Virus record (IMG/VR): IMGVR_UViG_3300044695_008209
Location: 96,001 to 160,000 of that record
From: a virus
DNA: 64,000 nt
Strand: one strand, 5' to 3'
The number at the start of each line of letters is the position of its first letter. Within the stretch, counting starts at the first letter, position 1. A program made the translations under genes and the position numbers. The notes under the pieces are model-generated. The model was not told the origin of the DNA. It saw only the letters and a list, made by a program, of their open reading frames with translations, and did no database searches. Below, one piece after another: positions 9,127 to 42,801 of the stretch.

Positions 9127-10520
9127 GTGTCTCCCTTGACCAGCCAGCCAGTTTTTCGGCACCACTTCAGGACGGACTGCAGCATCCCGAAGCTGTGATG
9201 GACCTCCCTGTCTGCGAACAGGTCGACGACGGGGTCCAGCTTCCCCTTGAGGGGACGCAGGATCCTCCCCACCGACTGCACCCACTCAGTGGGGGCGTAA
9301 TCATCGATCGACAGCGGCGTCGTCATGACCAGCGCGCTGAGGTCGGGGCGGTTGTAGTTCTCCTTCCCGACGTGCAGGGTAGCGACCACCACCGGGTAGT
9401 TGTTGAGCTGCCGCAGCCGCTCCTCCGCACCCTTCTCGTCCCCGGTGATGCCGCCGGCGAGGATGCCGACGTCCGTGAGCGCCCCCACGAGCTCGTACAC
9501 GTGCTTCTTAGAGTGGCTCAGCACATACACCTTGTGCCCTTGAGCCAGCCGTTCTTGCACCACGCCCACGATCACCTGGTTGCGCTCAGAGAGGCTCCCC
9601 AGCTTCCCTCGCAGCTTGGAGATGTTCGGCTGCTTGAGGACGTCGAGGATGTCCGGGTCGTCGTCCGCGAGGACGGTCCCCGTCTCGTGCAGGTGCACGC
9701 TCGGCACCAGCGAGTCCTCGGAGGGGTCGTCGTACAGGACCGGTCCGAGGTGGTAGAGCACGATGCCCTCGCAGCGGTCTCGCCTCTTGAGCGTCGCCGT
9801 CAACCACAGGCGTTGCCCCATCGTCAGGTCCGACCCGCGGGCGAACCACTCCGCTGCCTGGTGGTGCGCCTCGTCGTAGATGGTGAGCGCGAACCGGGAG
9901 TGGAAGTCATCCGGGAGCTTCCCGGCCTCGGCGCGCTTCACGAGCGTCTGGATCGTCGAGAACACGACCTCGCGCCTGTAGTCGAGCTGGTCTCCAAGAA
10001 CCCACCCGACAGGCCCCTTCATGTCGAACATCGTGCGGAGCTCGGTCTCCCAGTTACGAAGGTGAGCCTCCTGGGCGGAGACCACCAGAACCGGGCCCCC
10101 TACGATGCACGCGTACCGCAGGCCGAGCACCGTCTTGCCCTTCCCGGTGTCCAGCCGGAGCCCGCCGTCCACCCCACCAGCCGCGGCGCCCTCCAGGGCA
10201 AGCCACGCTCCGTGCTGGTTGGGGCGGAGCGCGAACCCGGGCTTCGGGGCAAGGCTCGAGGGCGTGAAGGATGGTGGACGCAGGTCGACCACCTGGTCGA
10301 TGCCGAGACGGCGCAGTGCTGCCGGGAGGAGGTAGTTCCGCGGTACCTCAAGGTGGTGGGGGTGCCGACGTACCAGTGTGCGAGGCTCCATCCCCGCCTC
10401 GATCCCGAAGGTGAGCGCCGTGCGGATGGGTGCCTCCGCCACGAGGCTCTTGGGAAGGAAGAGGGACGCCCCGATGTACGTGACGTCGGGCTCCAGCACG
10501 GGCAGGCGGAAGGTCGGCAT
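9084..10520 (-). CDS. Superfamily 2 (DEAH) helicase
   Basis: LRPNQ Q-motif, DTGKGKT, IYDEAHH, TAT, QSVGRILR. Confidence 0.92.
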   Translation of the reverse strand: MPTFRLPVLEPDVTYIGASLFLPKSLVAEAPIRTALTFGIEAGMEPRTLVRRHPHHLEVPRNYLLPAALRRLGIDQVVDLRPPSFTPSSLAPKPGFALRPNQHGAWLALEGAAAGGVDGGLRLDTGKGKTVLGLRYACIVGGPVLVVSAQEAHLRNWETELRTMFDMKGPVGWVLGDQLDYRREVVFSTIQTLVKRAEAGKLPDDFHSRFALTIYDEAHHQAAEWFARGSDLTMGQRLWLTATLKRRDRCEGIVLYHLGPVLYDDPSEDSLVPSVHLHETGTVLADDDPDILDVLKQPNISKLRGKLGSLSERNQVIVGVVQERLAQGHKVYVLSHSKKHVYELVGALTDVGILAGGITGDEKGAEERLRQLNNYPVVVATLHVGKENYNRPDLSALVMTTPLSIDDYAPTEWVQSVGRILRPLKGKLDPVVDLFADREVHHSFGMLQSVLKWCRKTGWLVKGDTWTRTITAPRTWRA

Positions 10521-11006
10521 CTACTCGTCCTCGTCCTCTTCGTCGCGCGGCCGCCTGTCTGCGGGGCGCTGCTCTGTGGGCCGCTTCGCGGCGGTCCGCT
10601 TCTTCATGATCTCGCGGAACGGATCCTCGTAGGGCGCCCGGGGGATCTGGTCCAGGGCGAAGACGGACTCGACCAGCCCCGCGCGGGCGCCGGAGAGCAC
10701 GCCGTTGAACATCAGGGCCTCGAAGAAGCCCAGGGACGCTTCTTCACGTTCCAGGTAGGACTCGGGGTCGGGGTTGACGGCGATCGACGGACCGGGCCCG
10801 CGGCGCCCGTCCCTCCTCGTATCCCGGTCCTCTCGCCGGTCCCCGCGATCCTCACGATCGTCGCGGCGCTTGTTCTTCACGATGACGGCACAGGTCTGCT
10901 CCCAGCGACAGCGCTCGCATGTCCGGTCTCGGGGGTCGTGTTCTCGCGGATCGCCGAAGCAGTTCGGACGCCGGAGGTTGCTTGATTGGTCCTCGTGTCT
11001 GGGCAC
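10521..11006 (-). CDS. Hypothetical protein with 4-Cys cluster and Arg/Asp low-complexity tracts; first gene of the replication operon
   Basis: CFG-x11-CERC-x5-C; AAGGAGG RBS before GTG 11006. Confidence 0.72.
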   Translation of the reverse strand: MPRHEDQSSNLRRPNCFGDPREHDPRDRTCERCRWEQTCAVIVKNKRRDDREDRGDRREDRDTRRDGRRGPGPSIAVNPDPESYLEREEASLGFFEALMFNGVLSGARAGLVESVFALDQIPRAPYEDPFREIMKKRTAAKRPTEQRPADRRPRDEEDEDE

Positions 11007-11030
11007 TTAGAGCCCTCCTTGGTTACTCCC

Positions 11031-11058
11031 CTTATGACCGGGGTATGTTAGGGTCTGC
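11031..11058. promoter_or_regulatory. Divergent promoter region (leftward CATAAG, rightward GGTATGTT, shared TTAGGGTCTGC)
   Basis: Strand switch point; motifs recur at other switch points. Confidence 0.55.
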
Positions 11059-11086
11059 CCCACCTGCCCTCCGTCTGAGGTACCCG

Positions 11087-12109
11087 ATGCGCGTTCTCGA
11101 CATTGCCGACGACTCCGGCGCGTTCCTCCTGTCCCGGGTCGGGGCGGAGGACTTGAACCCCCTCGTGAAGACCGCTTCCTGGAAGGAACCGGCAGAGATG
11201 AGGACGCGGGACTACGCGCTCCTCCTCATCGACACGGACGGGAAGGAGCACGGGAAGTACGCCTGCCACGATCCCGGCAACGTCATCGTCTCCATGGCGT
11301 ACCTCGAGAACGCGCAGCCGTACCTCAACCGTGCCGCGGTGAAGACGGCGGCGGCCGTGCTGTCCTCGCTGGCACGGGACTGGGGACTCGAGGTGCCAGG
11401 CGAGATCCAGAAGCTGGCGAACCTCTCACTCTCCGAGACCGACCGACGGGACATCGTCGATGCCCGCCGCGTTCGCTACAACCCGCCGCGGCAGGGCAGC
11501 ACCCAGAAGACCGCCTCCAGCCCCTTCGAGAAGGTGGCCGAGGCGAAGGAGCGGTGGGCGGACCTCGACCCGTTCCAGCGGCGTGCCGTCGCCTGCGAGA
11601 TGATCAAGGCCGCCGAGAGCGTCCCCCTGTCCATCCCGAACCGGTTCTACCAGTACGCCGGCGAGAAGCTGAGCAGCGGGTTCTCCTCCGCCATGCACCG
11701 GCGCCTGGACTACGTGAGCGACCCGGAGGTGGCCGAGGGCTACAGGACCCTCGCGAAGATCGCGTCGGCCTGTGAGCCGGACAGCGTGGTCCAGTCCCTC
11801 TACGAGCTGGACGCGCTGGCGCACCTGCGCTGGGCCGGCGGGGACCGCTACGGGGACGACCTGGCGGACCCCGTGCGCTGCGTCTACTCGACGACCAAGA
11901 TCGCGGCCTACTCCTGGAACCACGGAGCCGAGTTCACGAACGAGAACGACCTCTTCGTGTTCTCCACCCATCCGACCGGCGGGTCCAGGTTCCTCAGCGT
12001 CTTCACCCCTGAGGTCTGGCAGCGCTTCCGTACCTCTCCCGTCTCGACCTTCCAGGCCATGCCGCTCGAGCAGAAGATCCTGGTGTCCCGCATGGCCCGC
12101 GAGGTGTAG
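11087..12109 (+). CDS. Probable internal head protein with 7 K-x-A motifs
   Basis: GAGG RBS before ATG 11087; VKTAS, VKTAA, QKLAN, QKTAS, EKVAE, AKIAS, TKIAA. Confidence 0.75.
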   Translation: MRVLDIADDSGAFLLSRVGAEDLNPLVKTASWKEPAEMRTRDYALLLIDTDGKEHGKYACHDPGNVIVSMAYLENAQPYLNRAAVKTAAAVLSSLARDWGLEVPGEIQKLANLSLSETDRRDIVDARRVRYNPPRQGSTQKTASSPFEKVAEAKERWADLDPFQRRAVACEMIKAAESVPLSIPNRFYQYAGEKLSSGFSSAMHRRLDYVSDPEVAEGYRTLAKIASACEPDSVVQSLYELDALAHLRWAGGDRYGDDLADPVRCVYSTTKIAAYSWNHGAEFTNENDLFVFSTHPTGGSRFLSVFTPEVWQRFRTSPVSTFQAMPLEQKILVSRMAREV

Positions 12110-12111
12110 CA

Positions 12112-12918
12112 ATGGCCGACGGGACTGCAGATCTCGTGCGGCTGCTTGCGGATCCAACCGCATCCCCGCTCGCCCTTATGAGAGCTTTTACGTCCAGATT
12201 CGGGGTCGAGTGGCTCACGTGGGACTACACGGCGCTGCGCATGACGCTCGAGCGGGAGCTCCACGTGCAGGTCTCCCCCCAGACGATGAGCAAGGCCGTC
12301 GGCGGTGCTGCCATCGCGGTGAGCGACACCTTCTGGACAGACTGGGAGCACTTCCACTTCCTGGTCCAGGCGCTGAACGGGCGCATCCCCGACTTCAAGA
12401 ACCACCAGGAGCTGTCCGTTGGCCTGATGATGCGGGCCGTCCTGGTCGCCCAGGCGATCCGGAAGGAACTCGGCAAGCTCGTCGAGACGGTCCCCTTCTC
12501 GGAGGAGGTCGCGCGCTACGTCGCCGCCCAGGCGCTGCAAGCAGGAGTCTGGTACCTGCCTCCTCCGCTGGAGTTCGCCACCCGGCACGCCAGCGGGCTG
12601 AGCTACCGGTGCAAGGACTGCGGCAACACGTCCCCGGTCTTCGTTGACGACGGTCTCTGCGACGTCTGCGTGCACCGCTTCGACACGAGCCAGCTCGGCA
12701 GGTGGACGCCCGACCCGGAAGAGCTCGCGAAGGGCCGCGGGAGCAGCATCGAGTACTTCGAGAAGAATCCGACAGGTCCGATCGTCCGGAGGCTCCAAGA
12801 GTTGCACGACCACCCCGGTCGCACGCTCCAGGAGAACCAGACGGACATCTGCACCGGGAAGATCCTCGCCGCGGTAGAGTACGCACGCCAAGGGCAGTCC
12901 GGGGAGTCCGCGTGGTAG
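12112..12918 (+). CDS. Hypothetical protein with two CxxC pairs
   Basis: GAGG RBS; CKDC...CDVC. Confidence 0.75.
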   Translation: MADGTADLVRLLADPTASPLALMRAFTSRFGVEWLTWDYTALRMTLERELHVQVSPQTMSKAVGGAAIAVSDTFWTDWEHFHFLVQALNGRIPDFKNHQELSVGLMMRAVLVAQAIRKELGKLVETVPFSEEVARYVAAQALQAGVWYLPPPLEFATRHASGLSYRCKDCGNTSPVFVDDGLCDVCVHRFDTSQLGRWTPDPEELAKGRGSSIEYFEKNPTGPIVRRLQELHDHPGRTLQENQTDICTGKILAAVEYARQGQSGESAW

Positions 12919-13514
12919 ACCACCTCATGTACCGAGCCTGCTTCCGCGAGCTGGAGAAGTCCGCTGGGCTGGGGACCCGCGCAGCGGCCTGGGCCGGCGG
13001 GCACGCCGCACAGGTCGGTGGTGCCGTGAAGCACTTCGCTCACGACGTGGGGGATGCCGCACTGGGCACGGTGCGCCCCAGCGCGTGGAAGGCGGGGGTT
13101 CAGGCCGGCAGAGAGGAGATGAAGAAGGGTCCCTTGGCCGCGGGCATGACGGCTCTCATGGTGCCCATGACCGCCGCCGACACGGTGCACACCATGAAGA
13201 CGAAGGTGGACCCCGTCACCGGGCGGCAGATCGGTCTCGGGGAGCGAACTGCCGTCGCCGCGGGACGCATCGGTTCCTCGGTGGCCGGGATGCGCTACAT
13301 GAACGCGCAGAGCGGAGGCTTCTTGCGCGGCATGGGCGTTCAGGCGGGCGGGGCGGTGCTCACCGACGCGGTCACCAGCCGGGTCGGCCGCGCAGCTGAC
13401 AACTTGGCCGCGCGCAAGCCGCCTGCGACAGCGATCGGCGCAGGTGTCGGTACCCCCAACCGCGTCGTGCCTCACCTTGGGGGCGGGACACCCGTCGCTC
13501 GAGGAGTCGTATGA
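12912..13514 (+). CDS. Gly/Ala-rich probable head cargo protein (start moved to GTG 12912 or ATG 12927)
   Basis: GGGGAG RBS; FRELEKSAG motif; amphipathic Gly/Ala segments; ATGA coupling to portal. Confidence 0.65.
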   Translation: MVDHLMYRACFRELEKSAGLGTRAAAWAGGHAAQVGGAVKHFAHDVGDAALGTVRPSAWKAGVQAGREEMKKGPLAAGMTALMVPMTAADTVHTMKTKVDPVTGRQIGLGERTAVAAGRIGSSVAGMRYMNAQSGGFLRGMGVQAGGAVLTDAVTSRVGRAADNLAARKPPATAIGAGVGTPNRVVPHLGGGTPVARGVV

Positions 13515-15622
13515 GCTCCGACCCCACCCGCTTCTCTGGTCGCTCGACTACGGCCTCCTGGACGAGCCGCGGCTACGGCGTGCGGTACCCGTCGCCCTTC
13601 TTCGACGTCGCGCAGCAGTTCCTCCCGGAGAACGTGCACCAGCTGCACCTCTGGTGCCGCTTCTACTTCCTGACGAACCCCGTCATCAACGTCGCCTGTC
13701 AGAAGATGGCGGAGTACCCCGTCACGCCGCTCGTGTGGGAGACCGACGACAGCGAGCTCAAGTCCCTCTACACCAGCCTTGAGGCCCACCTTCGCCTGCG
13801 CCAGTTCCAGGTCGAGATCGGCCTGGACTACAACGTCTACGGAAACGGCTTCGCCAGCGTCTTCTTCCAGTTGGAGAAGTACCTGGTCTGCAAGAACTGC
13901 AAGGAGCGGTACCGCGCCTCGAAGAACCGCAGCCGCTACAAGTGGAAGAACGGGCGCTTCTTCCTCACCTGCGGGAAGTGCCACACGGAGGAGTACGCGG
14001 ACCAGGCCGACACCTACCCGCGGAACGTGCGCGGGGCCCGACTGGTCCGGTGGAACCCCGAGAACGTCGAGATCAAGCACAACGAGGTCACCGGCAACAG
14101 CCGCTACTACTACCGGCTCCCGCGGAGCGTCACGAACGACGTAAGGCTCGGGGACCCTGAGACCATCGAGACCCTCCCCTACCAGTTCCTCGAGGCGGCC
14201 CGCACTGGCAAGGCGCTCCTCTTCCACCCGGACAACTTCTTCCACCTGAAGCGCCCCACCATCGCCCAGAAGGACCAGGGCTGGGGATCGCCGCTGATCT
14301 TCCCGCTCCTCAAGGACGCCTTCTACCTGCAGGTCATGAAGAAGGCGCAGGAGAGCCTCCTTCTTGAGCACGTCGTCCCTCTGCGCATCGTCTTCCCGGG
14401 CCCCACCACAGGGGGGAACGACGGTCCCTTCGGTGCGTACAACCTGACGAACTGGAAGCAGAAGATCGACATCGAGCTGGCCATGTGGAAGCGGGACCAT
14501 AACTACATCCCGATCCTGCCCATGAACATCGGGTTCCAGCAGATCGGCGGGCAGGCCAAGGCGCTCATCCTGCACCAGGAGTTCCGCATCCACGCCGAGC
14601 AGATGCTCGCCGGTGCGGGCATCCCGGTGGAGTTCGTCTACGGCGGCCTCCAGTGGAGCTCCTCGAACACCTCGCTGCGCGCCTTGGAGAACACCTTCCT
14701 CGGCTACAACATCGAGCGCTTCAACCTCACGCGCTTCGTCGTCGACAAGGTCGCTGCCCACATGGGGTGGCCGACGATCCCGTTCCGCTTTGAGAAGTTC
14801 CGCATGGCGGACGACCTCCAGCGCGCGATGTTCTACTTCCAGCTCAACCAGGCGCAGAAGGTCTCGGACCAGCGCCTGTTGGAAGAAGTCGGCGAGGACT
14901 GGGACACCGAGAGCGAGCGCATCGCCGGCGAGCGCGTGAAGCAGATCGACGCGCAGAGGAAGTCGCAGCTGGCGACTGCCGAGATCCAGGGCGCAGCGCT
15001 GCTCCGCACTTCGCGCTACCAGGCCAAGGCCAACGAGCTGACGATGCTCGCGCAGAACAACGCCCAGATGCAGATCCAGCAGGCCCAGGCAGACGCCGGG
15101 ATGCTGGCGCCACCTGGAGCCGACCCGAACGCACAGGCAGCCGGCGGCCCGGCCGCGCCTCCGGCGGGAGCAGCGCCAGGAGCTCCGGGCAGCCCCGGGG
15201 CCGGTGCGCCGCCCGAGGACCCGGCTGCAGCCGGGCCGCCGGCACCCGTAGACCCCAACGCTGCACCCCCTGCCGGGGGACCCGCCATGTACGCCGAGAA
15301 CGCAGGAGCGCCGAACACCTCGGCAGCGCCCGTCGCCATGGCTGGGATGGAGTCGCCCCTGCAGATGGGCCAGGGCGGGATGGACCTCCGGTACGTCGCA
15401 CAGCGCGCGGCGGCCTACCTTCGCACGGTGGAGGCGCAGAACGGCAAGCAGGCGATGTTCCAGGAGCTGCAGAAGCTCCAGATGGAGAACCCGCCCATGT
15501 ACCAGCTCGTGGTGCAGCTCCTGAACGACACCGGATCTGCGGCAGATCCGATGAACGCGGCCAAGTCCCCGACCACGCCTCGCTCGGCAGCACAGCGGGA
15601 CCCCAGCCGGACTGTGGGCTAA
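13511..15622 (+). CDS. Portal protein with Zn-ribbon insertion and Pro/Ala-rich C-terminal extension
   Basis: NPVINVACQKMAEYP, LDYNVYGNGF, WNPENV, FHLKRP...WGSPLI pattern typical of portals. Confidence 0.75.
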   Translation: MSSDPTRFSGRSTTASWTSRGYGVRYPSPFFDVAQQFLPENVHQLHLWCRFYFLTNPVINVACQKMAEYPVTPLVWETDDSELKSLYTSLEAHLRLRQFQVEIGLDYNVYGNGFASVFFQLEKYLVCKNCKERYRASKNRSRYKWKNGRFFLTCGKCHTEEYADQADTYPRNVRGARLVRWNPENVEIKHNEVTGNSRYYYRLPRSVTNDVRLGDPETIETLPYQFLEAARTGKALLFHPDNFFHLKRPTIAQKDQGWGSPLIFPLLKDAFYLQVMKKAQESLLLEHVVPLRIVFPGPTTGGNDGPFGAYNLTNWKQKIDIELAMWKRDHNYIPILPMNIGFQQIGGQAKALILHQEFRIHAEQMLAGAGIPVEFVYGGLQWSSSNTSLRALENTFLGYNIERFNLTRFVVDKVAAHMGWPTIPFRFEKFRMADDLQRAMFYFQLNQAQKVSDQRLLEEVGEDWDTESERIAGERVKQIDAQRKSQLATAEIQGAALLRTSRYQAKANELTMLAQNNAQMQIQQAQADAGMLAPPGADPNAQAAGGPAAPPAGAAPGAPGSPGAGAPPEDPAAAGPPAPVDPNAAPPAGGPAMYAENAGAPNTSAAPVAMAGMESPLQMGQGGMDLRYVAQRAAAYLRTVEAQNGKQAMFQELQKLQMENPPMYQLVVQLLNDTGSAADPMNAAKSPTTPRSAAQRDPSRTVG

Positions 15623-15632
15623 AGGGCGGCCC

Positions 15633-16022
15633 CTACCGGGGGACCGCCAACATCAGGACGGAGCTCGCCTCGCCACACGCGTCGCACTCCCCGTCTTTCC
15701 AGTACGGCTGCACTGCGAACCCCCCGGTGCAGGTCGAGCACACCCACACGTAGTCCGGCGCCCTGTCCCCCAGTTCCTCCGACAGGAGCGGACATTCCCC
15801 GCAGTTGACGTCCCCGCACATCCCCCCGCGGTTGTACCTGCCGGCCGGCAGTCGAGCGCGCGCACTTCTGGTGCTGCGCTCGAGCAGGGGGCAGAACGCG
15901 AGGAGCCCTCCCTCCCCCGGGATCGTCGGGTCTACTCGAAGGGCCGTCCGTCCGGCGGGTTCATCCAGCTGCGTGCGATCTCGAAGCCGCCGGAGCGGGG
16001 AGTCTCGTCGCCGCTCAGGCAC
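15633..16022 (-). CDS. Small Cys-rich Zn-finger protein (may start at ATG 15821)
   Basis: CGEC, CSTC, CDAC in the last 62 aa. Confidence 0.5.
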   Translation of the reverse strand: MPERRRDSPLRRLRDRTQLDEPAGRTALRVDPTIPGEGGLLAFCPLLERSTRSARARLPAGRYNRGGMCGDVNCGECPLLSEELGDRAPDYVWVCSTCTGGFAVQPYWKDGECDACGEASSVLMLAVPR

Positions 16023-16125
16023 GGCTACCCTGCCTCTGGGCCTTCATCGAGTTTCCGAAGTCTACGATGAAGGCCATCGCGCCTCCCACGAACGCGAAGA
16101 CCATCATCCATGCCAGTGGACTCAT
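16015..16125 (-). CDS. Small single-TM membrane peptide (36 aa), not in the ORF track
   Basis: GGGAG RBS, MSPLAWMMVFAFVGGAMAFIVDFGNSMKAQRQGSRA, stop overlaps next GTG. Confidence 0.45.
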   Translation of the reverse strand: MSPLAWMMVFAFVGGAMAFIVDFGNSMKAQRQGSRA

Positions 16126-16273
16126 CAACATCTCCCAGATGCGCCTCGGCGCTCGGTCCTGATACGGCGTTCTCGACGAGCTGCGCAAAAGCGCGTAGCT
16201 CGGTCCCCTGCGGTGCGGTGCTGCGCCTCTGACGGGGCACCTTCGGACGTCCCGTGGTAGATATGTCGGACAC
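16025..16273 (-). CDS. Possible small hypothetical protein (82 aa)
   Basis: GGAGG RBS 5 nt before GTG, just downstream of GGCATAAG; 3' half has poor codon usage and overlaps the membrane peptide. Confidence 0.35.
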   Translation of the reverse strand: MSDISTTGRPKVPRQRRSTAPQGTELRAFAQLVENAVSGPSAEAHLGDVDESTGMDDGLRVRGRRDGLHRRLRKLDEGPEAG

Positions 16274-16318
16274 GGTCACCTCCACTTCTCTTATGCCGGA
16301 TAGCGGAGAACTTCTACG

Positions 16319-19300
16319 ATGCCGAACCTGAACCCGGAAGCCGCCTTCGAGAGCCTCAAGGGACAGGTGGCGGCGACGATCCGGGCACAGTTCCCTTTCG
16401 AGGGTGCCACGCGCCGGCTCGAGATCCTGGACGTCCTCTTCGACGAGAAGTCCAACACTGCCGCGGATGCGCACCACATCGACAACCTGGAGGAGCAGCT
16501 CAAGGCACGCACGACGGGCATGACGTGGGGCGTGAAGGTCCGCGGCCACCTGCGCCTCGTGGACAAGGCCTCCGGGCACACCGTCGAAGAGGCGACCGTC
16601 ACCCTGACCAACCTCCCCAAGATCACGCGCCGCTACTCCTACATCATCGACGGGCAGGAGAGGCAGCACGACAGCGTCTTCCGCTCGAAGTCGCGGGCCT
16701 ACCACCGCATCGCGTCGAACGGCGACATCCAGGCACGCTGGAACCTGGCACGCGGCCACGGGTTCGACCTCACGTACGACCCGGTGAAGGGCCGGATGGT
16801 CATGACGATCGGGGACTCGAACATCCCGCTCTACTCCGTGCTCCGCGTCCTCAACGTGGGGGACGCCGCGATGGAGCGGCAGTGGGGGCCCGAGGTGTTC
16901 CGCGACAACGTCAAGGCGGCGAAGCCGGGAGACGTGGACAAGATCTACACGGCGCTGCACCTGCGCATGGCTGACCGGTCTCCCGGCTCTCCGGCGCAGC
17001 GCGCAGAGAAGATCCGCGAGTACTTCGAGCAGGAGACGGAGGTGCTGCCGGACGCGATGAAGGCCGCCTTCGGCAAGGAGTACACCACCGTCAACGGAGA
17101 GAACCTCCTCCTCTCGTCCGGGCGACTCCTCGCCATCCAGAAGGGCCGCCTGAAGGAAGACCCTCCCGCGCACGAGCTCCCGGACGACCGGCAGGCCCTG
17201 TCCGCGAAGTACCTCGCGACGACGGAGGACTTCGTGATCGAGGCTCTTCGCCACCACGAGGCGAGCCTGCGGAAGCAGGTTCACGACCGCATCGACAAGC
17301 CCGAGTACAGCATCACCGACATCATGTCGCCGAACTCCTACGGGCGCGTCGTGCTCTCTCCCTTCCAGCACGCCCAGCGCCCGGAGCAGACCAACCCGCT
17401 GCAGTTCCTCTCCGGGTACATGCGCACGACCATCCGTGGCAAGGAGTTCGGCGGCGTCGGCGGCGAGAAGATCAACCTGGACGTCGAGAAGGAGCTGAAC
17501 CCCACCCACCTCGGGTTCATCGACCCCATCCAGACCCCCGAGGGGGAGGACACGGGCATCGCGCTCAACCTGCCGCTCGGGATCTCCCTGACGCGCGGGA
17601 CTGCCCGCCCCGGCACGAAGAGCCGCGCATCTCCGGGGCAGGAGATCCGCACGAAGGTCTACGACACCAAGGCCGGGCAGCTCGTGCTGGCGACGCCGGC
17701 GGAGCTCGAGCACGAGATCGTCGCGTACCCGGACCAGGTGCGCTGGACAGCCGGCCGTCCTACTCCAATCGCGAACGAGGTCATCTGCTACGACGAGCAG
17801 CGGAAGACCTCGAAGCGCCCGTGGTCCAAGGTGCGGTACGTGCTCCCCTCCGCGAAGGCGCTCCTCTCCTTCAGCGCGAACCTCATCCCCTTCCTGCAGA
17901 ACAACAACGGCAACCGGGCGATGATGGCGGCCAAGCAGCAGGAGCAGGCACTCGCGCTGGTACACCGCGAGGCCCCGCTCGTGCAGGTCAAGACGGACGG
18001 CACCAGCACCTTCGAGCACGTCGTCGGGTCCTTCGTCACGCACACGGCCCCTGAGGCAGGGGTGGTGAAGCACGTTGAGCCGGGAGCCATCCACCTCCAG
18101 ACACAGTCGGGGCTGGTGAAGATCCCCACCTACAACCACTTCCCCTTGAACGGAGGGAAGAACTCGCTGCACTCCATCCCGGTGGTGAAGGCGGGGCAGT
18201 CGGTGGAGAAGGGGGCCCTCCTCGCGGACTCGAACTACACGAAGGACGGGGCCCTCGCTCTCGGGGCGAACCTCCGCGTGGCGTACGTGCCTTGGAAGGG
18301 CCTGACCTTCGAGGACGGCATCGTCGTGTCCGAGAGCGCCGCGAAGCGCATGTCGTCCGACCACATGCACGCGCTCGAGATCACGGTCTACGCGGGCATG
18401 GTCGGAGCGGAGCCCGGCGCGATGGCGAGGTGGCGCGACTATGCGACGCCGGCGCGCGGCACGTCCGAGCACGTCAGCAAGCTGGACGACCGCGGGATCA
18501 TCCGCGAGGGGACAGTCGTCCACACGGGCGACGTCCTCGTCGCCGTTCTCAGCCCGAAGCAGCCGAATGAGTCTGACTTGGCCGCGGGGCGCATCCACAA
18601 GACGCTGGCGAAGTCGTACCGGGACGCCTCCCTCGTCTGGGACCACGACTACTCTGGCAAGGTCGTGCGCGTGCTCGTCTCGGAGGCGATGAACCGGAAG
18701 CACGTCACGGTCCACATCGCGACGGAACAGCCGCTGGTGGTCGGAGACAAGCTGGCTGGTCGACACGGCAACAAGGGCATCATCAGCCGCATCGTGCCGG
18801 ACCACGAGATGCCCCACACGGCTGACGGCGCTCCGGCAGACCTGCTGCTCAACCCCGCCGGGGTACCGAGCCGCATGAACATCGGTCAGGTCCTGGAGAC
18901 CGCGGCCTCGAAGATCGCCCAGAAGACGGGCAAGCCCTACGTCGTGGAGAACTTCGTCTCGGGGGTCGACTACTCCGCGAAGGTCATGCAGGAGATGCAG
19001 AAACACGGGCTGACGGACACGGAGGAGATGTTCGACCCCGTGACCAAGCGGTCCATCGGCAAGATCATGGTCGGCCCGCAGTACATGCTCAAGCTCCACC
19101 ACCAGGTGGAGAAGAAGGCGACCGCGCGCTCGATGGAGACCGGGTACACCCACACTGGTGAGGCCCCGAAGGGGTCCGGCATCCCTGGCGGTGGCCAGAA
19201 GATGGACATGCTCACGACGTACGCGATGCTCGCGCACGGGGCCAACCACAACCTCCGCGAGGCGTACACCTTCAAGAGCGACGGGGACCAGAACGCCGCC

Positions 19301-22300
19301 TGGGCCGCCGTGATCACGGGCAACCCGTTGCCGCCGCCGCAGCCCACGCGTGGGATGTCGCACTTCCAGAACTACCTGCGCGCCCTCGGCGTGAACGTGG
19401 AGAAGCGGAAGGACGACTACCACCTCTCCCCGCTGACGGACCTGCACCTGCTCGGCGACGAGAAGCGTGGGTTCCGCGGCATCTCGAACGGAGAGATCAA
19501 GCTGCCCGAGAAGCTCTCCGTGGCGCGTGGAGCGCGCACGGTCGAAGAGCACGGCGGCCTGTTCGACCCGAAGGTCACTGGCGGCATCCAGGGCAAGTTC
19601 TGGAGCCACGTCACCCTGGCGGAGCGGATGCCGAGCCCGCTCTTCGAGCCTGCCATCCAGACCCTGACGGGCCTGACCAAGAACCAGTTCAACAGTATGG
19701 TGGGTGAGAAGGGCTACGTCGACGGGAAGTCCGGGTTCCACACCATCGTCGAGCGGCTGGCCGCCCTCGACGTCGACACCGAGCTGAAGAAGGCCCAAGC
19801 TGAGGTCGGGAAGTCGAGCCGCGCCACGCTGAGCCGCTCGATGAAGAAGGTCCGCTACCTCGAGGCCCTCAAGGCGAGCGGGCTCACCCCCCTTGAGGCG
19901 TACACGAACAAGTACCTGCCCGTCCTGCCGCCGTCGGTGCGACGCGTGTCGATCGGACTCGATGGAACACAGGTTCTCGACGATCGGAACCCGCTGTACC
20001 TGGCGGTCGGCCACGCGAACGGGATCCTCAAGGCGGCGAAGCCCTCCACCCCCCACGAGGACATGCAGAAGGCGCGCGCGTCCCTCTACAGCAGCATCCG
20101 CTCCCTGAAGATGACCGGCATGACGACCAGCCCCGGCTCCGGCAAGCCGCGGCACATGCAGGGCCTGATGGAGCTCCTATCCGGCAAGACCGAGGACCAC
20201 GGCGCCCCCAAGGAGAGCTTCTTCCAGGAGGGCGTGCTCGCGCGTCGCCAGGACCTGTCCGGGCGCTCGACGATCGTGCCGGAGCCGGCCCTCGGTCTCG
20301 ACCAAGTCGGGGTGCCCCGCCAGATCGCCATGGAGATGTACAAGCCCTTCGTCGTGCGTGAGCTCGTGCGAGCGGGCAAGACTCCCATCGACGCGCTGAA
20401 GTGGGCGACCGAGAAGAAGGACCACCCGCAGGTGATGGACGCGCTCGAGCGCGCGGTGTCCGAGCGGCCTGTGTTCCTGAAGCGGGACCCGTCCCTGCAC
20501 AAGTTCAGCATCATGGCCTTCCACCCGAAGATCGTGGACGGCAGCGCCATCAAGATCCACCCGCTGGTCACCGGAGGCTTCAACGCCGACTTCGACGGGG
20601 ACACGATGGCCCTCTACGTCCCGGTGTCTGCCGAGGCGGTGGAGGAGGCGCACAAGATGCTCCCCTCGAAGAACCTGTTCTCGCCCACCCACTTCGGCCT
20701 GCTTCCCGTCCCCGGGCAGGACTCGCTCCTGGGCATCTACCAGGCCACGAAATGGGGCACCGAGGTTCCCGTTCCCGCGGGCACCACTGCCGAGCGCGCG
20801 ATGCAGATGATGCACGACGGGAAGCTCAAGCCGACCGACGTGATCACCATCGACGGGAAGAAGACGACCGCGGGGCGCCTGTCTCTCGCCAGGTTGCTTC
20901 CGACTGAGATGCAGGGGAACGAGAAGCTCCTGCACGACTCGGCCTTTCGCCTCAACAAGGATGGCGTCGAGAAGATGCTCTCCACGGTGGCGCGGGAGCA
21001 CGACAAGGGGTTCTCCGGGACGGTCGACGGGTGGAAGGACCTCGGGAACCACCTGTCCTACCTGAACGGCAGCTCCTTCTCCATCAACGACTTCCACGAC
21101 GGGGTCGCAATGCGCGACCGCGTCCTGAAGCCCTACGCCGAGCAGGAGAAGAAGCTCCACGCCACCCCCATGTCCCCGCGAAAGCGGGATCAGGAGATCG
21201 TCAAGCTCTACCAGGGGGCGCAGGCAGAGCTGAAGTCCGTCGGCAAGGTCAGGTACGACGCAGGCAGCAACCGCGTCTGGGAGTGGGCGCAGTCCGGGGC
21301 CCGCGGCAACTGGAACCAGTTTGCGCAGCTGACCCTGGCGCCCGTCCTCGTCGAGGACTTCGCCCGACGTACCGTCCCTGTGCCCATCACCAAGTCCTTC
21401 GGGGAGGGGCTCTCCGTCTCGGAGTACTGGGCGTCGATGCACGGAGCTCGTAAGGGCACGCTTGACCGTGCGCAGGGGACCCGTGAGCCCGGCGCCGTCC
21501 AGAAGGACATCGTCAACACGACCATGGGGATCCAGGTCACGGCGGAGGACTGCGGCTCGACCGAGGGCAAGCAGATGTCCCTGGGCCACAACGACATCGT
21601 CGGGCGCTTCCTCGCGCACTCCGTGAAGATCGGGACGGTCGACGTCCACGCGGGCGAGCTCATTACCCCCGCGCTCGTCTCGCAGGCGAGGAACGCGGGC
21701 GTCGTCGAGTTCGTCGTGCGCTCTCCCCTCTTCTGCAGGATGGGGAAGGGGGTCTGCGCGAAGTGCTACGGGCACAACGAGCGCGGAGGCCTGCACGCGA
21801 TCGGCACGAACCTCGGGGTCATCGCGGGGCAGGCGCTCAGCGAGCCCATCACGCAGCTCGCGATGAAGACCTTCCACACAGGCGGTGTTTCCAGCGCCGG
21901 CCAGTCCAGCGCCGTGGACTCCTTCAAGCGGGTGAAGCAGCTCTTCATGGTCCCCGACAAGCTGCCGGACAAGGCGGTGCTCGCCGTCATCGGGGGCAAG
22001 GTCGGGAAGATCTCCGCAGACGCACGCGGTGGGTTCACGGTCGACATCGAGGGCAAGCCGCACCGCGTCGTCACGGGGCACCTCCTCGAGAACGTCAAGA
22101 CGGGGGCTACCGTGCACCGCGGTGACCCGATCTCCACGGGCCCCATCGACCCGCACGAGCTCCTGGAGCACACCAAGAGCATCGGGCGGACGCGGAACTA
22201 CATCACGGACGAGGCCACTGCCGCGTACCAAGGCACGGTTCGGCAGCGGAACGTGGAGATGGTGGTCCGTGGGATGACGAACCTGACCGAGGTCCACAAC

Positions 22301-22630
22301 GCGCCTCCTGGAAGTCCCTGGCACCGCGGGGATATGGCACCGCTCTCTGCCGTCGACGAGCACAACGCCATCGCGACTGGCGAAGGCCACGAGACCATCT
22401 CGCATACCCCCACTCTTCGGGCGATGACGCTCGTGCCACTGTCCGGAACCGAGGACTGGATGGCACGGCTCAACTATCAGCGCCTCAAGGAGACGTATAC
22501 TGAGGGTGCTGCCCAGGGATGGAAGTCCAACATCCACGAGCACCCGATCCCCGGCCTTGCCCACGGGGCAGAGTTCGGGCTACATCCACCAAAGACCCGC
22601 GCACCACCGCCTTCTGGAGCACACCGATGA
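16319..22630 (+). CDS. rpoBC: Fused beta-beta' multi-subunit-type DNA-directed RNA polymerase (2103 aa)
   Basis: beta: QTPEG, NRAMMAAKQQEQA, FEDG, GDKLAGRHGNKG, GVPSRMNIGQVLE; beta': LPVLPP, SGRSTI, KRDPSLH, catalytic NADFDGD (20582-20602), SGARG, HGARKG, RSPLFC...CAKCYG, EPITQLAMKTFH; one uninterrupted frame. Confidence 0.97.
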   Translation: MPNLNPEAAFESLKGQVAATIRAQFPFEGATRRLEILDVLFDEKSNTAADAHHIDNLEEQLKARTTGMTWGVKVRGHLRLVDKASGHTVEEATVTLTNLPKITRRYSYIIDGQERQHDSVFRSKSRAYHRIASNGDIQARWNLARGHGFDLTYDPVKGRMVMTIGDSNIPLYSVLRVLNVGDAAMERQWGPEVFRDNVKAAKPGDVDKIYTALHLRMADRSPGSPAQRAEKIREYFEQETEVLPDAMKAAFGKEYTTVNGENLLLSSGRLLAIQKGRLKEDPPAHELPDDRQALSAKYLATTEDFVIEALRHHEASLRKQVHDRIDKPEYSITDIMSPNSYGRVVLSPFQHAQRPEQTNPLQFLSGYMRTTIRGKEFGGVGGEKINLDVEKELNPTHLGFIDPIQTPEGEDTGIALNLPLGISLTRGTARPGTKSRASPGQEIRTKVYDTKAGQLVLATPAELEHEIVAYPDQVRWTAGRPTPIANEVICYDEQRKTSKRPWSKVRYVLPSAKALLSFSANLIPFLQNNNGNRAMMAAKQQEQALALVHREAPLVQVKTDGTSTFEHVVGSFVTHTAPEAGVVKHVEPGAIHLQTQSGLVKIPTYNHFPLNGGKNSLHSIPVVKAGQSVEKGALLADSNYTKDGALALGANLRVAYVPWKGLTFEDGIVVSESAAKRMSSDHMHALEITVYAGMVGAEPGAMARWRDYATPARGTSEHVSKLDDRGIIREGTVVHTGDVLVAVLSPKQPNESDLAAGRIHKTLAKSYRDASLVWDHDYSGKVVRVLVSEAMNRKHVTVHIATEQPLVVGDKLAGRHGNKGIISRIVPDHEMPHTADGAPADLLLNPAGVPSRMNIGQVLETAASKIAQKTGKPYVVENFVSGVDYSAKVMQEMQKHGLTDTEEMFDPVTKRSIGKIMVGPQYMLKLHHQVEKKATARSMETGYTHTGEAPKGSGIPGGGQKMDMLTTYAMLAHGANHNLREAYTFKSDGDQNAAWAAVITGNPLPPPQPTRGMSHFQNYLRALGVNVEKRKDDYHLSPLTDLHLLGDEKRGFRGISNGEIKLPEKLSVARGARTVEEHGGLFDPKVTGGIQGKFWSHVTLAERMPSPLFEPAIQTLTGLTKNQFNSMVGEKGYVDGKSGFHTIVERLAALDVDTELKKAQAEVGKSSRATLSRSMKKVRYLEALKASGLTPLEAYTNKYLPVLPPSVRRVSIGLDGTQVLDDRNPLYLAVGHANGILKAAKPSTPHEDMQKARASLYSSIRSLKMTGMTTSPGSGKPRHMQGLMELLSGKTEDHGAPKESFFQEGVLARRQDLSGRSTIVPEPALGLDQVGVPRQIAMEMYKPFVVRELVRAGKTPIDALKWATEKKDHPQVMDALERAVSERPVFLKRDPSLHKFSIMAFHPKIVDGSAIKIHPLVTGGFNADFDGDTMALYVPVSAEAVEEAHKMLPSKNLFSPTHFGLLPVPGQDSLLGIYQATKWGTEVPVPAGTTAERAMQMMHDGKLKPTDVITIDGKKTTAGRLSLARLLPTEMQGNEKLLHDSAFRLNKDGVEKMLSTVAREHDKGFSGTVDGWKDLGNHLSYLNGSSFSINDFHDGVAMRDRVLKPYAEQEKKLHATPMSPRKRDQEIVKLYQGAQAELKSVGKVRYDAGSNRVWEWAQSGARGNWNQFAQLTLAPVLVEDFARRTVPVPITKSFGEGLSVSEYWASMHGARKGTLDRAQGTREPGAVQKDIVNTTMGIQVTAEDCGSTEGKQMSLGHNDIVGRFLAHSVKIGTVDVHAGELITPALVSQARNAGVVEFVVRSPLFCRMGKGVCAKCYGHNERGGLHAIGTNLGVIAGQALSEPITQLAMKTFHTGGVSSAGQSSAVDSFKRVKQLFMVPDKLPDKAVLAVIGGKVGKISADARGGFTVDIEGKPHRVVTGHLLENVKTGATVHRGDPISTGPIDPHELLEHTKSIGRTRNYITDEATAAYQGTVRQRNVEMVVRGMTNLTEVHNAPPGSPWHRGDMAPLSAVDEHNAIATGEGHETISHTPTLRAMTLVPLSGTEDWMARLNYQRLKETYTEGAAQGWKSNIHEHPIPGLAHGAEFGLHPPKTRAPPPSGAHR

Positions 22631-23028
22631 ACGCCTTCGAGAAAACCGCAGCCTTCTACGACACCGCCCTCTCTGCGCCGACGACCGACAAGGTCGCCAG
22701 CGTCTACGAGATCTACAAGCAGGCCGGCTTCGACAAGGACGCGGGACTCGCCTCCGGCATCGGAGAGGCCGTCGCCGCCGGCGGGAAGTGGGTCGGGCAC
22801 CAGGTCGGGCGCGTGGGTGGCGCGATGCAGCGGACAGCCTTCCAGGCGTCGAAGGGCGTCCCCACGCAGGGGCAGGCCATGCTCCACGCCGCCGGACAGG
22901 GCGTGCGCAACCTGGGCAAGGGGATCGCGGCGAACCCGGGCACCGCAGCCGGCGTCGCCGGCGTTGGCCTCGCCGGTATGGGGGCCGCGGGAGTGGCCGG
23001 TCGGATGTCCGCCCCTCGCCAGCAGTAG
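22627..23028 (+). CDS. Small K-x-A / glycine-zipper probable head cargo protein (start moved to ATG 22627)
   Basis: ATGA coupling to RNAP stop; EKTAA, DKVAS, YKQAG, DKDAG; NPGTAAGVAGVGLAG. Confidence 0.75.
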   Translation: MNAFEKTAAFYDTALSAPTTDKVASVYEIYKQAGFDKDAGLASGIGEAVAAGGKWVGHQVGRVGGAMQRTAFQASKGVPTQGQAMLHAAGQGVRNLGKGIAANPGTAAGVAGVGLAGMGAAGVAGRMSAPRQQ

Positions 23029-23049: not shown

Positions 23050-24222
23050 ATGACGACCAAGAAGCAGGGGACGCATGACCTCCCGAACAAGGGCAAGTCC
23101 ACGGGCGGGGGCGCGGGGACGCCTGCGCTCATCCAGGCGGGGCGGATCCTCGACGTCGACCCACTGAGGTGGACGTGCGTCATCAAGACCGACGGCGGAG
23201 GCGACGTCTCGAGGACTTTCCGCGACGTTCCACTCGGCGGCATGTACCTGCACCCCCTCGGAGATGGCATCTTCGTGATGCCCGAGCCTGGTGCGCTGGT
23301 GTGGGTCTGCAAGCCGAGCGAGGGGGACGCGTCCGCGTTCATCGTCGCCTACCGGCCCTACCCGCGCAGGGACAACGTCACCTCGACCGAGGCCAACAAG
23401 CCGACGACCACCAGCAATCGTCCGCGCCTCAGTCCCGGCGACTTGGCGTTTCTCGGACGAGACCAGAACGGGCTCTTCGTGCGTCGAGGGCAGCTGACGG
23501 AGATCTTCGGAGGCCCGCTCGCACGGACGCTCTACCAGGGACGCACCGGCACGATCCACTCCTTCGCCCAGACGGTGAAGCTCGACGTGTTCGGCGGCTC
23601 AGTCCGCTGGGACGTGGACCGCCCCGAGCTCGACCCGGACGGCCACCAGGGAACGCGCGTGGACCTGAAGGCGAAGGAGTACGCGGACGACCGCGCCTAC
23701 GTCTCCAGGATCCAGATCGGCAAGTTCGACGCCAACACCACCATCTCGGAGCCCGTCCTCCGCGTGCAGGTCTTCTCGAGTGGAGATGCGGAAGAGGCGT
23801 CGCTCGTCCAAGCAGCATCCCTCGCGGCGAACAAGGACGGCGAGGTCGAGCTCTCTACGACTGGGAACGTGACGGTCGACGTGGTGGTGGGCGGCGCGCC
23901 GGTCGCGTCCGTGCACGTCTCGAAGGACGGCACGATCGCGATCACGGGGACCGCGGCCGTCGCGGTTCAGGGGACTTCGGTGACCCTCATCGCAGGTAGC
24001 ATGCAGATGGCTGTGGCCGGTGCCGGTGCCTCCGTCGGTGCCGAGGCCGGGGTCAAGACCAAGGTGTTGAAGGACCTGGCCTTCAGCACTGACGCCGCGG
24101 CTGCCTGGACCGAGGTCATGGCACTCTGTACCGCACTCGGACTGCCGAGCACGAACATCGCGAAGCATCTCGCCTCCCTGAGCGCAGCGGCCTACACCTC
24201 GACGGCGCTGGAGACTGAGTAG
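23050..24222 (+). CDS. Baseplate spike/hub protein (gpV/gp5/VgrG-like OB fold plus beta repeats)
   Basis: GRILDVD...DVPL...GIFVMPEPGALVWV OB-fold pattern; C-terminal beta-strand repeats. Confidence 0.6.
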   Translation: MTTKKQGTHDLPNKGKSTGGGAGTPALIQAGRILDVDPLRWTCVIKTDGGGDVSRTFRDVPLGGMYLHPLGDGIFVMPEPGALVWVCKPSEGDASAFIVAYRPYPRRDNVTSTEANKPTTTSNRPRLSPGDLAFLGRDQNGLFVRRGQLTEIFGGPLARTLYQGRTGTIHSFAQTVKLDVFGGSVRWDVDRPELDPDGHQGTRVDLKAKEYADDRAYVSRIQIGKFDANTTISEPVLRVQVFSSGDAEEASLVQAASLAANKDGEVELSTTGNVTVDVVVGGAPVASVHVSKDGTIAITGTAAVAVQGTSVTLIAGSMQMAVAGAGASVGAEAGVKTKVLKDLAFSTDAAAAWTEVMALCTALGLPSTNIAKHLASLSAAAYTSTALETE

Positions 24223-24750
24223 ATGCCCGGGCCGCACCTTCCATCCATCCGGCAGCGCGTACATCGACGCCTCAACCCGGGTCGACTGGCGCAGGACGGC
24301 TTGCCGGAACTCCTCGCTCAGGTGCTCTACGACGAGCTCCTCGAAAACCCGGGACCGCAGGGCGCCCCAGGTACCCCCGGTGCTCCAGGAGTAGCCGGTG
24401 ACCCTGGACCACAGGGGGATCCTGGGCCTCAAGGGGACCCCGGGCCGCAAGGAGATCCTGGTACCCCCGGAGGGACTGACCCCGCGCTCGAGATGGAGCT
24501 GGCCTTCAAGGTGGCCAACGCGAGCAACTTCAAGAAGCCGACCTACAACCTTCAGGGGCAGCTGACGGTGGTGGACATCTGGGAGACTCCGGCGATGCTG
24601 GTGAAGCTGTTCAGCAAGGCGCTGGCGTACACGGACGGGAAGCTGACCACGTCGACGCTGACACGCATCTCGGACGGCGCTACGCTTGTCCGGACGCTCA
24701 CGTACGCTGCTGAGAAGTGGGACGGTACGACCTCGGTATACACCCCATGA
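24223..24750 (+). CDS. Collagen-like virion protein
   Basis: About 13 Gly-X-Y triplets (GPQGDP repeats). Confidence 0.72.
24350..24475 (+). repeat. Degenerate 18-bp repeats encoding GDPGPQ collagen units
   Basis: ggggatcctgggcctcaa / ggggaccccgggccgcaa / ggagatcctggtaccccc. Confidence 0.75.
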
Positions 24751-31163: not shown

Positions 31164-31254
31164 CCTGCGGGAGGCGGCGGGCTTTCCGCCCTCATCGACG
31201 ACAGCTTACCGTAGACCCCCCGCAGGAGTTATCCTTGCGCCTGGAGTGTTCTCC

Positions 31255-39033: not shown

Positions 39034-39088
39034 GGATGATCCTTGTTGTAGCTGGCGGGAGTTGCCAGTACAGGCTTATGGCAAGATC

Positions 39089-42734: not shown

Positions 42735-42801
42735 CACGAACTCCCGTGCGCGTGTCCGAGAAAGGGTATATTCGGACGTACAGGTGACAAGGTAACCCGA
42801 G

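Follow-up and report, generated by a model that had tools for sequence, protein, structure and literature searches.

Reviews of phage transcription from 2020, 2021 and 2026 describe the multisubunit RNA polymerases (RNAPs) of phages as split, diverged and without sigma homologues, and assign phage sigma factors to phages that have no RNAP (PMC7598289, PMC7824862, PMC13282480). Two groups are recognized: phages with split, diverged, sigma-less RNAPs, and RNAP-less phages that send their sigmas to the host enzyme (PMC7824862, PMC13282480). In the phiKZ/AR9 class, beta and beta' are by definition each split into two or three polypeptides, and there are virion and non-virion sets (PMC7598289, PMC7824862); one set is packaged in the virion for early transcription (PMC7598289, PMC13282480). 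The stretch of viral DNA considered here (the window, 64,000 nucleotides) covers positions 96001-160000 of the 182,777-bp IMG/VR virus contig IMGVR_UViG_3300044695_008209. At 16319-22630 on its plus strand it encodes a bacterial-type RNAP whose beta and beta' parts form one polypeptide. This is a real, conserved single-chain RNAP core, and the phage lineage to which it belongs is large and has hardly been studied.

The whole contig has 66% GC, is rated 99% complete by CheckV, and has an overlap of about 18 bp between its ends. Coordinates below refer to the window unless they are marked as genome positions.

The fused beta-beta' polymerase

The gene is a single unbroken open reading frame (ORF) that runs from an ATG at 16319 to a TGA at 22630 and encodes 2103 residues. 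Its coding statistics are strong, with a G+C content at third codon positions (GC3) of 0.92 throughout. From the N to the C terminus, Pfam recognizes Rpb2_3 (residues 356-418), Rpb2_6 (579-939, E 1.4e-68), Rpb1_2 (1309-1448, E 1.5e-31), Rpb1_3 and Rpb1_5 (1697-1872). Since this is the order of bacterial beta followed by beta', the seamless fusion reported in a preliminary description of the sequence is confirmed. The parts of the gene are as follows.

16319..22630, plus strand: fused beta-beta' RNAP (P0001), from the ORF, its translation and the ordered Pfam Rpb2/Rpb1 domains; the single beta/beta' locus of the whole genome in a six-frame profile search.
16319..19408, plus strand: beta module, residues 1-1030 (lobes, fork, catalytic barrel, flap and C-terminal clamp part), from an AlphaFold2 (AF2) fold match and conserved motifs.
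19406..19414, plus strand: beta/beta' junction, a linker of about 3 residues (R-K-D), from alignment to the Salmonella RpoB C-terminus and RpoC N-terminus.
19415..22630, plus strand: beta' module, residues 1033-2103, from phmmer against the Protein Data Bank (PDB) and TIGR02386.
19550..19615, plus strand: site of the missing beta' N-terminal zinc-binding domain (E. coli C70-C88), from the family alignment.
19970..20113, plus strand: beta' clamp helices, residues ~1218-1265, the predicted sigma-docking site, from alignment and a complex model.
20582..20602, plus strand: catalytic Mg-binding motif NADFDGD, residues 1422-1428, from alignment of family members.
21416..21943, plus strand: bridge helix (1700-1736), second Zn site (C1745, C1806, C1813, C1816) and trigger loop (1830-~1875), the last without the SI3 insert, from alignment and phmmer.

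The beta C-terminal motif LRALGVNVEK occupies residues 1020-1029, the beta'-homologous sequence begins at about 1033, and the beta' N-terminal motif ISNGEIKLPE lies at 1055. The linker (nucleotides ~19406-19414) falls within the interval 19377-19510 that had been given for the join.

Both the rpoB and the rpoC models of NCBIfam match the protein, all below their equivalog cut-offs. For beta, PRK00405 gives 379 bits against a cut-off of 896 and TIGR02013 gives 347 against 801. For beta', TIGR02386 covers residues 1122-2069 with 464.5 bits against 963.5. The top scores belong to the models of RpoBC fusions of the Helicobacter type (PRK09603) and the Wolbachia type (PRK14844), again far below cut-off (550 versus 5372 bits). 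A weak Peptidase_M23 match at residues 1885-1939 is taken to be the beta' C-terminal sandwich-barrel domain and not a peptidase.

In a phmmer search of the PDB, the top matches of the beta' half are bacterial beta' chains (Thermus, C. difficile, Bacillus) with E values of about 1e-105. The AF2 model of residues 1-620, which has a predicted local distance difference test score (pLDDT) of 61 and is confident in blocks, matches bacterial beta chains over about 650 columns (E ~1e-20). Identity to the Salmonella subunits is 27.6% for RpoB and 28.9% for RpoC. With bacterial chains as its best structural matches and about 28% identity to Salmonella, the protein bears out the earlier remark that phiKZ-type and crAss-type RNAPs are far more diverged.

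Which parts of the enzyme are retained can be read from an alignment of 23 family members, compared with Salmonella RpoB and RpoC in E. coli numbering. In the beta part, E813/D814 (FED), GDK..GRHGNKG (residues 809-820) and KL.H are conserved across the family. In the beta' part, the NADFDGD motif, the bridge helix, the trigger loop and the second Zn site are conserved in the 23 members; within NADFDGD, five positions (A1423, D1424, D1426, G1427, D1428) do not vary, and N1422 and F1425 hardly do. The clamp helices are full length and align to Salmonella beta' 250-312 with a single one-residue gap. Rifampicin cluster I is not conserved in the alignment, which suggests insensitivity to rifampicin. 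The fused RNAP is almost certainly real and catalytically intact.

The protein is 646 residues shorter than beta (1342) plus beta' (1407) of Salmonella or E. coli, in line with the several hundred residues stated before. Absent relative to Salmonella are betaSI1, betaSI2, pieces of beta 1126-1210, beta'SI3, beta' 127-161 and the beta' C-terminal tail. About 470 of the 737 absent residues are lineage-specific inserts (betaSI1, betaSI2, beta ~1126-1210 and beta'SI3), and against the NCBIfam core models (about 1096 and 1147 positions) the protein is only modestly reduced; to call it a "minimal" polymerase, as the preliminary description did, was an overstatement. The distinctive loss is that of the beta' N-terminal zinc-binding domain, and the shortness mostly reflects the absent enterobacterial inserts. 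The domain is deleted in 23 of 23 family members: Salmonella beta' 64-88 is unmatched after residue 1088 of the phage protein, and residues 1033-1121 contain no cysteine. In bacteria, this domain contacts sigma and promoter DNA.

The fused form is common in metagenomes. When residues 900-1400, which span the junction, were searched against metagenomic proteins, 637 matches were obtained. Nearly all of the best 120 are 2030-2120 residues long and have both Rpb2 and Rpb1 domains, a few being shorter or truncated; they are 41-93% identical over the junction, and their source contigs reach about 200 kb. Longer members of the family (2400-2900 residues) contain LAGLIDADG or intein domains.

Seven IMG/VR relatives (L010-L016) with 48-88% identity were also compared. 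The RNAP ORF is unbroken in five of them (L010, L011, L013, L015 and L016), and in L012 it is still open where the contig ends. In the closest relative, L010, a continuous ORF of 2968 residues (10001-18907) has two in-frame insertions of about 460 and 350 residues, one directly after NADFDGD and the other within the trigger loop. This is typical behaviour for inteins, which hit the catalytic motifs of this enzyme, and in-frame inteins in relatives argue that the protein is made and needed. The remaining relative, L014, is almost identical to L011 but has one nucleotide deleted exactly at the beta/beta' junction (~13100). The deletion splits the ORF, such that the TGA of a beta ORF overlaps the ATG of a beta' ORF (ATGA). 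It may be a sequencing error or a natural un-fusion into two coupled subunits.

The phage sigma factor and CATAAG promoters

The preliminary description found no alpha, omega or sigma gene in the 64 kb. This holds for the window at the level of Pfam, and six-frame profile searches of the whole 182,777-bp genome likewise give no match for alpha (PF01000, PF01193 and PF03118; N-terminal domain, C-terminal domain and RNA_pol_L) or omega (PF01192). It does not hold for sigma in the genome as a whole, where a sigma70-family gene lies outside the window at genome positions 63684-64571 (plus strand), 48 kb upstream of the RNAP. A T7-type RNAP had no match in the genome either, in a search that had no positive control and is therefore weak.

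The sigma gene encodes 295 residues. Its product is homologous to Gp10 of Salmonella phage Arash (E 4e-18), an annotated sigma present in virions, and the block around the gene is syntenic with Arash gp4-gp10. Records of relatives contain the sigma with 81, 69 and 46% identity, and the records without it are fragments of 25-66%. Across the clade, sigma homologues share contigs with fused RNAPs.

The assignment to the sigma70 family comes from a family-wide profile scan and from the fold. All 19 members of the sigma family match Sigma70_r3 (PF04539), the best with E 3.9e-10; this genome's own sigma reaches 22.7 bits, just under the cut-off of 25.3, and is the sole Sigma70_r3 locus in the genome. 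The region 2 profile PF04542 has no match in the genome, and the C terminus of the sigma scores only 11.8 bits against region 4 (PF04545). The FliA/WhiG model matches below its cut-off (E 6e-5), and phmmer against the PDB finds nothing. The AF2 model (pLDDT 77) shows a three-domain sigma2-sigma3-sigma4 fold. With Foldseek, the top 50 PDB matches are all sigma70-family factors with probability 1.00 over 235-280 aligned columns; the template modelling score is only about 0.3 because the domain orientations differ.

Docking of the sigma on the fused core was modelled with sigma residues 60-295 and the beta' clamp fragment 1033-1345. The interaction prediction score from aligned errors (ipSAE) is 0.76, compared with 0.00 for the best control; 58 of 80 solved complexes and 2 of 110 mismatched pairs reach that mark. 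At least 77% of contacts agree between runs, and the partners have a pLDDT of at least 75. The modelled interface is the canonical one between sigma2 and the clamp helices, with beta' 1218-1259 contacting sigma 77-130. Since sigma and beta' are a textbook pair, the pass shows likeness to solved holoenzymes and is neither proof of binding nor a means of telling the phage core from the host core. Taken together, the evidence makes it probable that the fused RNAP partners with the phage's own sigma, and it is fairly likely that the enzyme is independent of alpha.

A candidate target for this sigma is the hexamer CATAAG. The genome has 37 copies on the minus strand and none on the plus strand, compared with about 17 per strand expected from composition. 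Examples lie at 16291-16296 (minus strand) and in the regions 10521-11036 and 38242-39080. Twenty-five of the sites are 5-65 nucleotides ahead of a minus-strand start codon, and 20 of the 37 are followed within about 30 nucleotides by a GAGGTGA ribosome site and a start codon. The aligned sites have the consensus cgG-N-CATAAG, which resembles an extended -10 element; there is no -35 element at a fixed distance. Extended -10 promoters are read by factors with sigma regions 2 and 3. Compared with the bacterial form TG-N-TATAAT, GG-N-CATAAG differs at -15, -12 and -7, and the G at -7 argues against reading by a primary sigma of the host.

Relatives have the same motif, with the same bias between the strands. 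In six of the six relatives examined, a reverse CATAAG lies 25-40 nucleotides upstream of the RNAP ATG, ahead of a small divergent ORF, whose N-terminal coding sequence is recognizable in L010-L012. In this genome the two elements are as follows.

16291..16296, minus strand: CATAAG core of an extended -10-like promoter, pointing away from the RNAP and 25 nucleotides upstream of its ATG, from the sequence and relatives.
16025..16273, minus strand: divergent ORF of 82 residues, predicted to be driven by the promoter at 16291..16296, with a GTG start after GGAGGTGA, from translation.

The motif is absent at plus-strand genes, those of the RNAP and the sigma included, and no alternative conserved motif was found for that strand. 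A scan for consensus sigma70 promoters and terminators upstream of the RNAP gene gave nothing. GTATA occurs only six times per strand in the genome. Four of the six plus-strand copies have the form GGTATA(G/C/T) about 30 nucleotides upstream of plus-strand gene starts (24736, 28037, 42766 and genome position 62909), none of them before the RNAP. GGTATA(G/C/T) is a candidate late-promoter element, but its sites are too few.

Three side observations concern proteins that may be connected with transcription. Only two plus-strand proteins in the proteome have an N-terminal F-E-K-x-A leader, the sigma (MGLLLRAFEKRA) and a 133-residue protein whose ORF is coupled to the RNAP (MNAFEKTAA). A third match, in a minus-strand ORF at genome positions 8255-8998, reads F-G-K-N-A. 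In the sigma, a Pro/Ala linker and then a Trp-rich motif come after the leader, and shorter family members are without these; the leader may be a shared signal for targeting or processing.

Secondly, a protein of 286 residues at 42003-42863 (minus strand) has an N-terminal helix-turn-helix of the MerR/HTH_17 type (E ~3e-06) and is a candidate phage transcription regulator, not a sigma. Thirdly, a protein of 824 residues at genome positions 159726-162200 (plus strand; 63726-64000 of the window and beyond) is homologous to the helicase Gp217 of Arash (E 9e-49). In Arash, this helicase is encoded right after the beta'C gene and is detected in virions. The homologue may be an RNAP-associated factor similar to SNF2/RapA.

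Gene neighbourhood, possible virion packaging and alternatives

The RNAP gene lies on the structural strand, as previously described, in the order portal, divergent cassette, RNAP, 133-residue ORF, gpV/VgrG-like protein and collagen-like fibre.

13511..15622, plus strand: portal protein gene, 703 residues, the upstream neighbour of the RNAP, from tblastn to Arash gp204 (E 4e-80) and Vibrio D69 (E 2e-86).
22627..23028, plus strand: Gly/Ala-rich ORF of 133 residues, whose ATG (22627-22629) overlaps the RNAP TGA (22628-22630) as ATGA, from sequence.
23050..24222, plus strand: conserved protein of 390 residues, a probable baseplate central spike (gpV/VgrG-like), from the ESM Atlas as a lead only.
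24223..24750, plus strand: collagen-like tail fibre protein, 175 residues, from PHROGs tail fibre (E 5e-10) and Pfam Collagen (6.4e-07).

In the ESM Atlas, the 390-residue protein has a feature score of 0.94-0.96 to Phage_base_V clusters and a structural TM of 0.50 to Phage_base_V/VgrG clusters. Most neighbours of the RNAP match no PHROGs or Pfam family. The order portal-RNAP-spike is kept in seven of seven IMG/VR relatives, the spike gene being seen in the six whose loci extend past the RNAP.

Two earlier claims about this arrangement stand in part. Coupling of the RNAP to a small ORF, followed by baseplate genes, agrees with the ATGA overlap and with the spike-like next gene; the small ORF is not an obligate partner, as it is missing from the closest relative. 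It matches no family and has homologues in L011 and L014 (72%) and L015 (32%) and none in L010 or L013. The idea of a virion operon agrees with the position on the structural strand but is complicated by the conserved divergent promoter cassette that separates the RNAP from the portal gene.

Other proteins of the region are described here for completeness. A protein of 577 residues at 31246-32979 (plus strand) ends in a domain similar to ferritin/Dps (Pfam E 1.3e-08; PHROG "DNA binding protein" E 2.3e-10) and is conserved in the six relatives with loci extending past the RNAP. At 45007-46920 (plus strand), a protein of 637 residues has a Vibrio D69 homologue and a weak match to a head-maturation protease (PHROG E 4.3e-05); together with a terminase at 39017-40882, this points to a head module at about 39-52 kb. 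Three plus-strand proteins have a share of K-x-A among their lysines far above the alanine frequency: 10 of 11 (42802-43716), 9 of 14 (10919-12109) and 12 of 22 (32976-34496). Such a bias in head-module proteins would fit a maturation-protease or targeting code.

Whether the polymerase itself is packaged can be judged from its relatives. In mass spectrometry (MS) of Arash virions, the homologue Gp206 ranks first with 3516 spectra, above the major capsid protein, and Gp216 (1210) and the sigma Gp10 are also present (PMC10585845). In Yersinia phage YerA41, RNAP subunits and the sigma are associated with the particle (PMC7354516). That the Arash homologue is the most-detected virion protein makes packaging plausible by analogy, and it is the late, structural-strand location between portal and spike, combined with the abundance of homologue and sigma in Arash and YerA41 particles, that makes it probable. 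With the direct data coming from these two relatives, we lean slightly towards a fused RNAP that is carried in the virion.

The following mechanism is proposed. Beta and beta', joined head-to-tail by the short linker, would form a functional core RNAP of the bacterial type. Its assembly most likely requires neither alpha nor omega; the covalent link would take the place of the alpha-dimer scaffold. Promoter specificity most likely comes from the 295-residue sigma, whose sigma2 domain would dock on the retained clamp helices, and the likely targets are the GG-N-CATAAG promoters before minus-strand, early-looking genes. Judging by homologues, the enzyme, probably as a holoenzyme, would be packaged and ejected with the DNA, starting transcription independently of the host polymerase.

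As a whole, a functional single-chain core without alpha or omega, with a phage sigma, CATAAG promoters and probable packaging is the best explanation and a reasonably likely one, its activity being predicted. A stronger form is held only tentatively: a self-sufficient machine of two proteins, the fused core and one sigma, without alpha or omega, that is packaged in the capsid, ejected, and reads early GG-N-CATAAG promoters independently of the host.

Several points weigh against the proposal. No promoter was identified for plus-strand genes, the RNAP gene included. The sigma's own Pfam and NCBIfam scores are under the curated cut-offs, and it may instead serve the host core enzyme. Alpha-independence is argued from the missing alpha profile match, and host alpha may be used. 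As to packaging, the RNAP has neither the K-x-A enrichment of the neighbouring head-module proteins (9 of its 132 lysines) nor an N-terminal F-E-K-x-A leader. The 116 particle proteins reported from Arash MS include ribonucleotide reductases (PMC10585845), and such metabolic enzymes make carry-over of abundant cytoplasmic proteins possible. The RNAP genes of YerA41 are expressed early (PMC7354516).

The points on packaging would all fit a non-virion polymerase, that is, an active fused enzyme made after infection by the host RNAP and used for middle or late transcription, its detection in particles of relatives being contamination. T7 RNAP and the phiKZ non-virion RNAP are models for such an enzyme. 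It would also fit that this genome has one RNAP locus, compared with the separate virion and non-virion sets of phiKZ-type phages. Against it, the Arash homologue has the highest spectral count of all virion proteins, and in every relative the gene lies between portal and spike on the structural strand. The divergence of CATAAG at the critical -7 position likewise suggests that a host sigma is not its reader. We consider this explanation unlikely.

Another explanation is a hybrid enzyme, in which the fused beta-beta' needs host alpha, and perhaps omega, for folding, assembly or regulation. The architecture is fully bacterial, with all core domains and about 28% identity to the Salmonella subunits, and the natural RpoBC fusion RNAPs of Helicobacter still use alpha. 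A hybrid is nevertheless rather improbable: no alpha gene is detected in a 99%-complete genome, a virion-delivered enzyme would require packaged host alpha too, and RNAPs of the phiKZ/AR9 type function with neither alpha nor omega and with no stably bound host subunits (PMC13282480).

The sigma could also redirect the host core RNAP, as T4 gp55 and SPO1 gp28 do, the fused polymerase using another specificity factor or none. Phage sigmas that hijack the host core are common according to the reviews, the success of the complex model may reflect the general likeness of sigma/beta' pairs, and the beta' zinc-binding domain, a contact of sigma and promoter DNA in bacteria, is missing. We give this little probability, as the clamp helices are full length, sigma and phage RNAP occur together on the same contigs across the clade, and both are found in Arash and YerA41 particles. 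A sigma is also paired with a bacterial-type RNAP in Arash, YerA41 and Cobetia phage Carin-5, the last with adjacent sigma, beta' and beta genes.

Finally, an assembly artefact or pseudogene, by a mis-join or by loss of a stop and start between rpoB and rpoC, can be set aside: the junction deletion that splits the ORF of L014 relative to L011 would suit it, but the same seamless junction in at least 120 independent metagenomic proteins (41-93% identity) and in the Arash and Vibrio isolates, the strong GC3 (0.92) over the whole ORF, the invariant catalytic residues and the family-wide conservation of ORF and gene order rule it out.

If the proposed two-protein machine is correct, it would be the simplest natural bacterial-type holoenzyme and a third transcription strategy of phages, beside split sigma-less RNAPs and the hijacking of host RNAP by phage sigmas. 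Provided that it is active on its own, the enzyme would offer a natural model of initiation of the bacterial type with just two components (2103 plus 295 residues). It could show whether a covalent beta-beta' link can stand in for the alpha scaffold and the omega chaperone, and which functions do not depend on the beta' zinc-binding domain. A rifampicin pocket that is not conserved hints at use in synthetic biology as an orthogonal polymerase insensitive to the drug, and virion delivery, if true, would explain host-independent early expression.

Comparison with known polymerases

A phylogeny against bacterial and phage RNAPs, as the preliminary description had proposed, was calculated from three concatenated conserved blocks (37 rows, 723 columns, IQ-TREE LG+C20, quick search, unrooted). 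All 19 sampled bacteria, from at least 9 phyla and including Helicobacter, Campylobacter and Sulfurovum, are on one side of a branch with 100% support. The fully fused family, Arash and Vibrio D69 form one group (95% support), and YerA41 and Carin-5 a separate long branch. Since the phage lineage lies outside the sampled bacteria and is not nested in Campylobacterota, its fusion is independent of the Helicobacter one.

Among 185,579 prokaryote genomes, a single-protein scan gave no relative and an alignment scan gave only ordinary rpoBC with 27-34% identity; neither pointed to a close bacterial donor or to the host. The fully fused form has no record among 50,697 phage genomes, and no paper was found on a phage RNAP of the bacterial type that is fused, or on the pairing of such an enzyme with sigma. 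The lineage is nevertheless widespread, comprising hundreds of uncultured phages of about 150-200 kb and the cultured phages Arash and Vibrio D69/D148/D181.

The same beta-beta'N fusion junction is found in Arash (Gp206 and Gp216, sigma Gp10; OQ632216, PMC10585845) and in Vibrio D69/D148/D181. These phages also share with the present one the order of portal then RNAP, a homologous sigma and a genome of about 180-187 kb. Their RNAPs are only about 27-31% identical to the fully fused protein and differ in that the C-terminal third of beta' is encoded separately from Arash gp206 and Vibrio D69 0261. The cut corresponds to residues ~1515-1520, where the cyanobacterial rpoC1/rpoC2 split also lies, and the two RNAP genes are set apart by several genes or a homing endonuclease. 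A group I intron joining the two Vibrio D69 genes was considered and rejected, as there is no Rfam match and the break is a clean stop and start. In the Arash paper, Gp206 is annotated merely as "subunit beta", with no discussion of the fusion (PMC10585845).

The RpoBC proteins of Helicobacter (PRK09603) and Wolbachia (PRK14844) likewise have beta then beta' in one chain with a short linker. Compared with these, the phage protein is about 700-800 residues shorter and without the zinc-binding domain, and neither alpha nor omega is detected in its genome.

RNAPs of the phiKZ/AR9 type resemble the present one in being phage-encoded two-barrel enzymes without alpha or omega. They differ in being highly diverged, in having 4-5 polypeptides and two paralogous sets, and in having no sigma70 homologue. 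With one ORF, one locus and a sigma70-family gene in the genome, the fused enzyme falls outside that class.

The crAss-like phage gp66 and SPbeta YonO also have both catalytic barrels on one polypeptide, and the virion-delivered gp66 is of similar size. These are minimal enzymes of the RdRp/YonO-like kind without the bacterial flap, lobes and clamp, whereas the protein described here has the full bacterial beta and beta' Pfam domains and folds.

YerA41 and Carin-5 have a bacterial-like beta, beta' and sigma, as does the present phage, but their subunits are unfused and the beta' gene precedes beta. Compared with the two groups of the reviews, the lineage thus breaks the current classification, having both a recognizably bacterial fused core and a recognizable sigma70-family factor.

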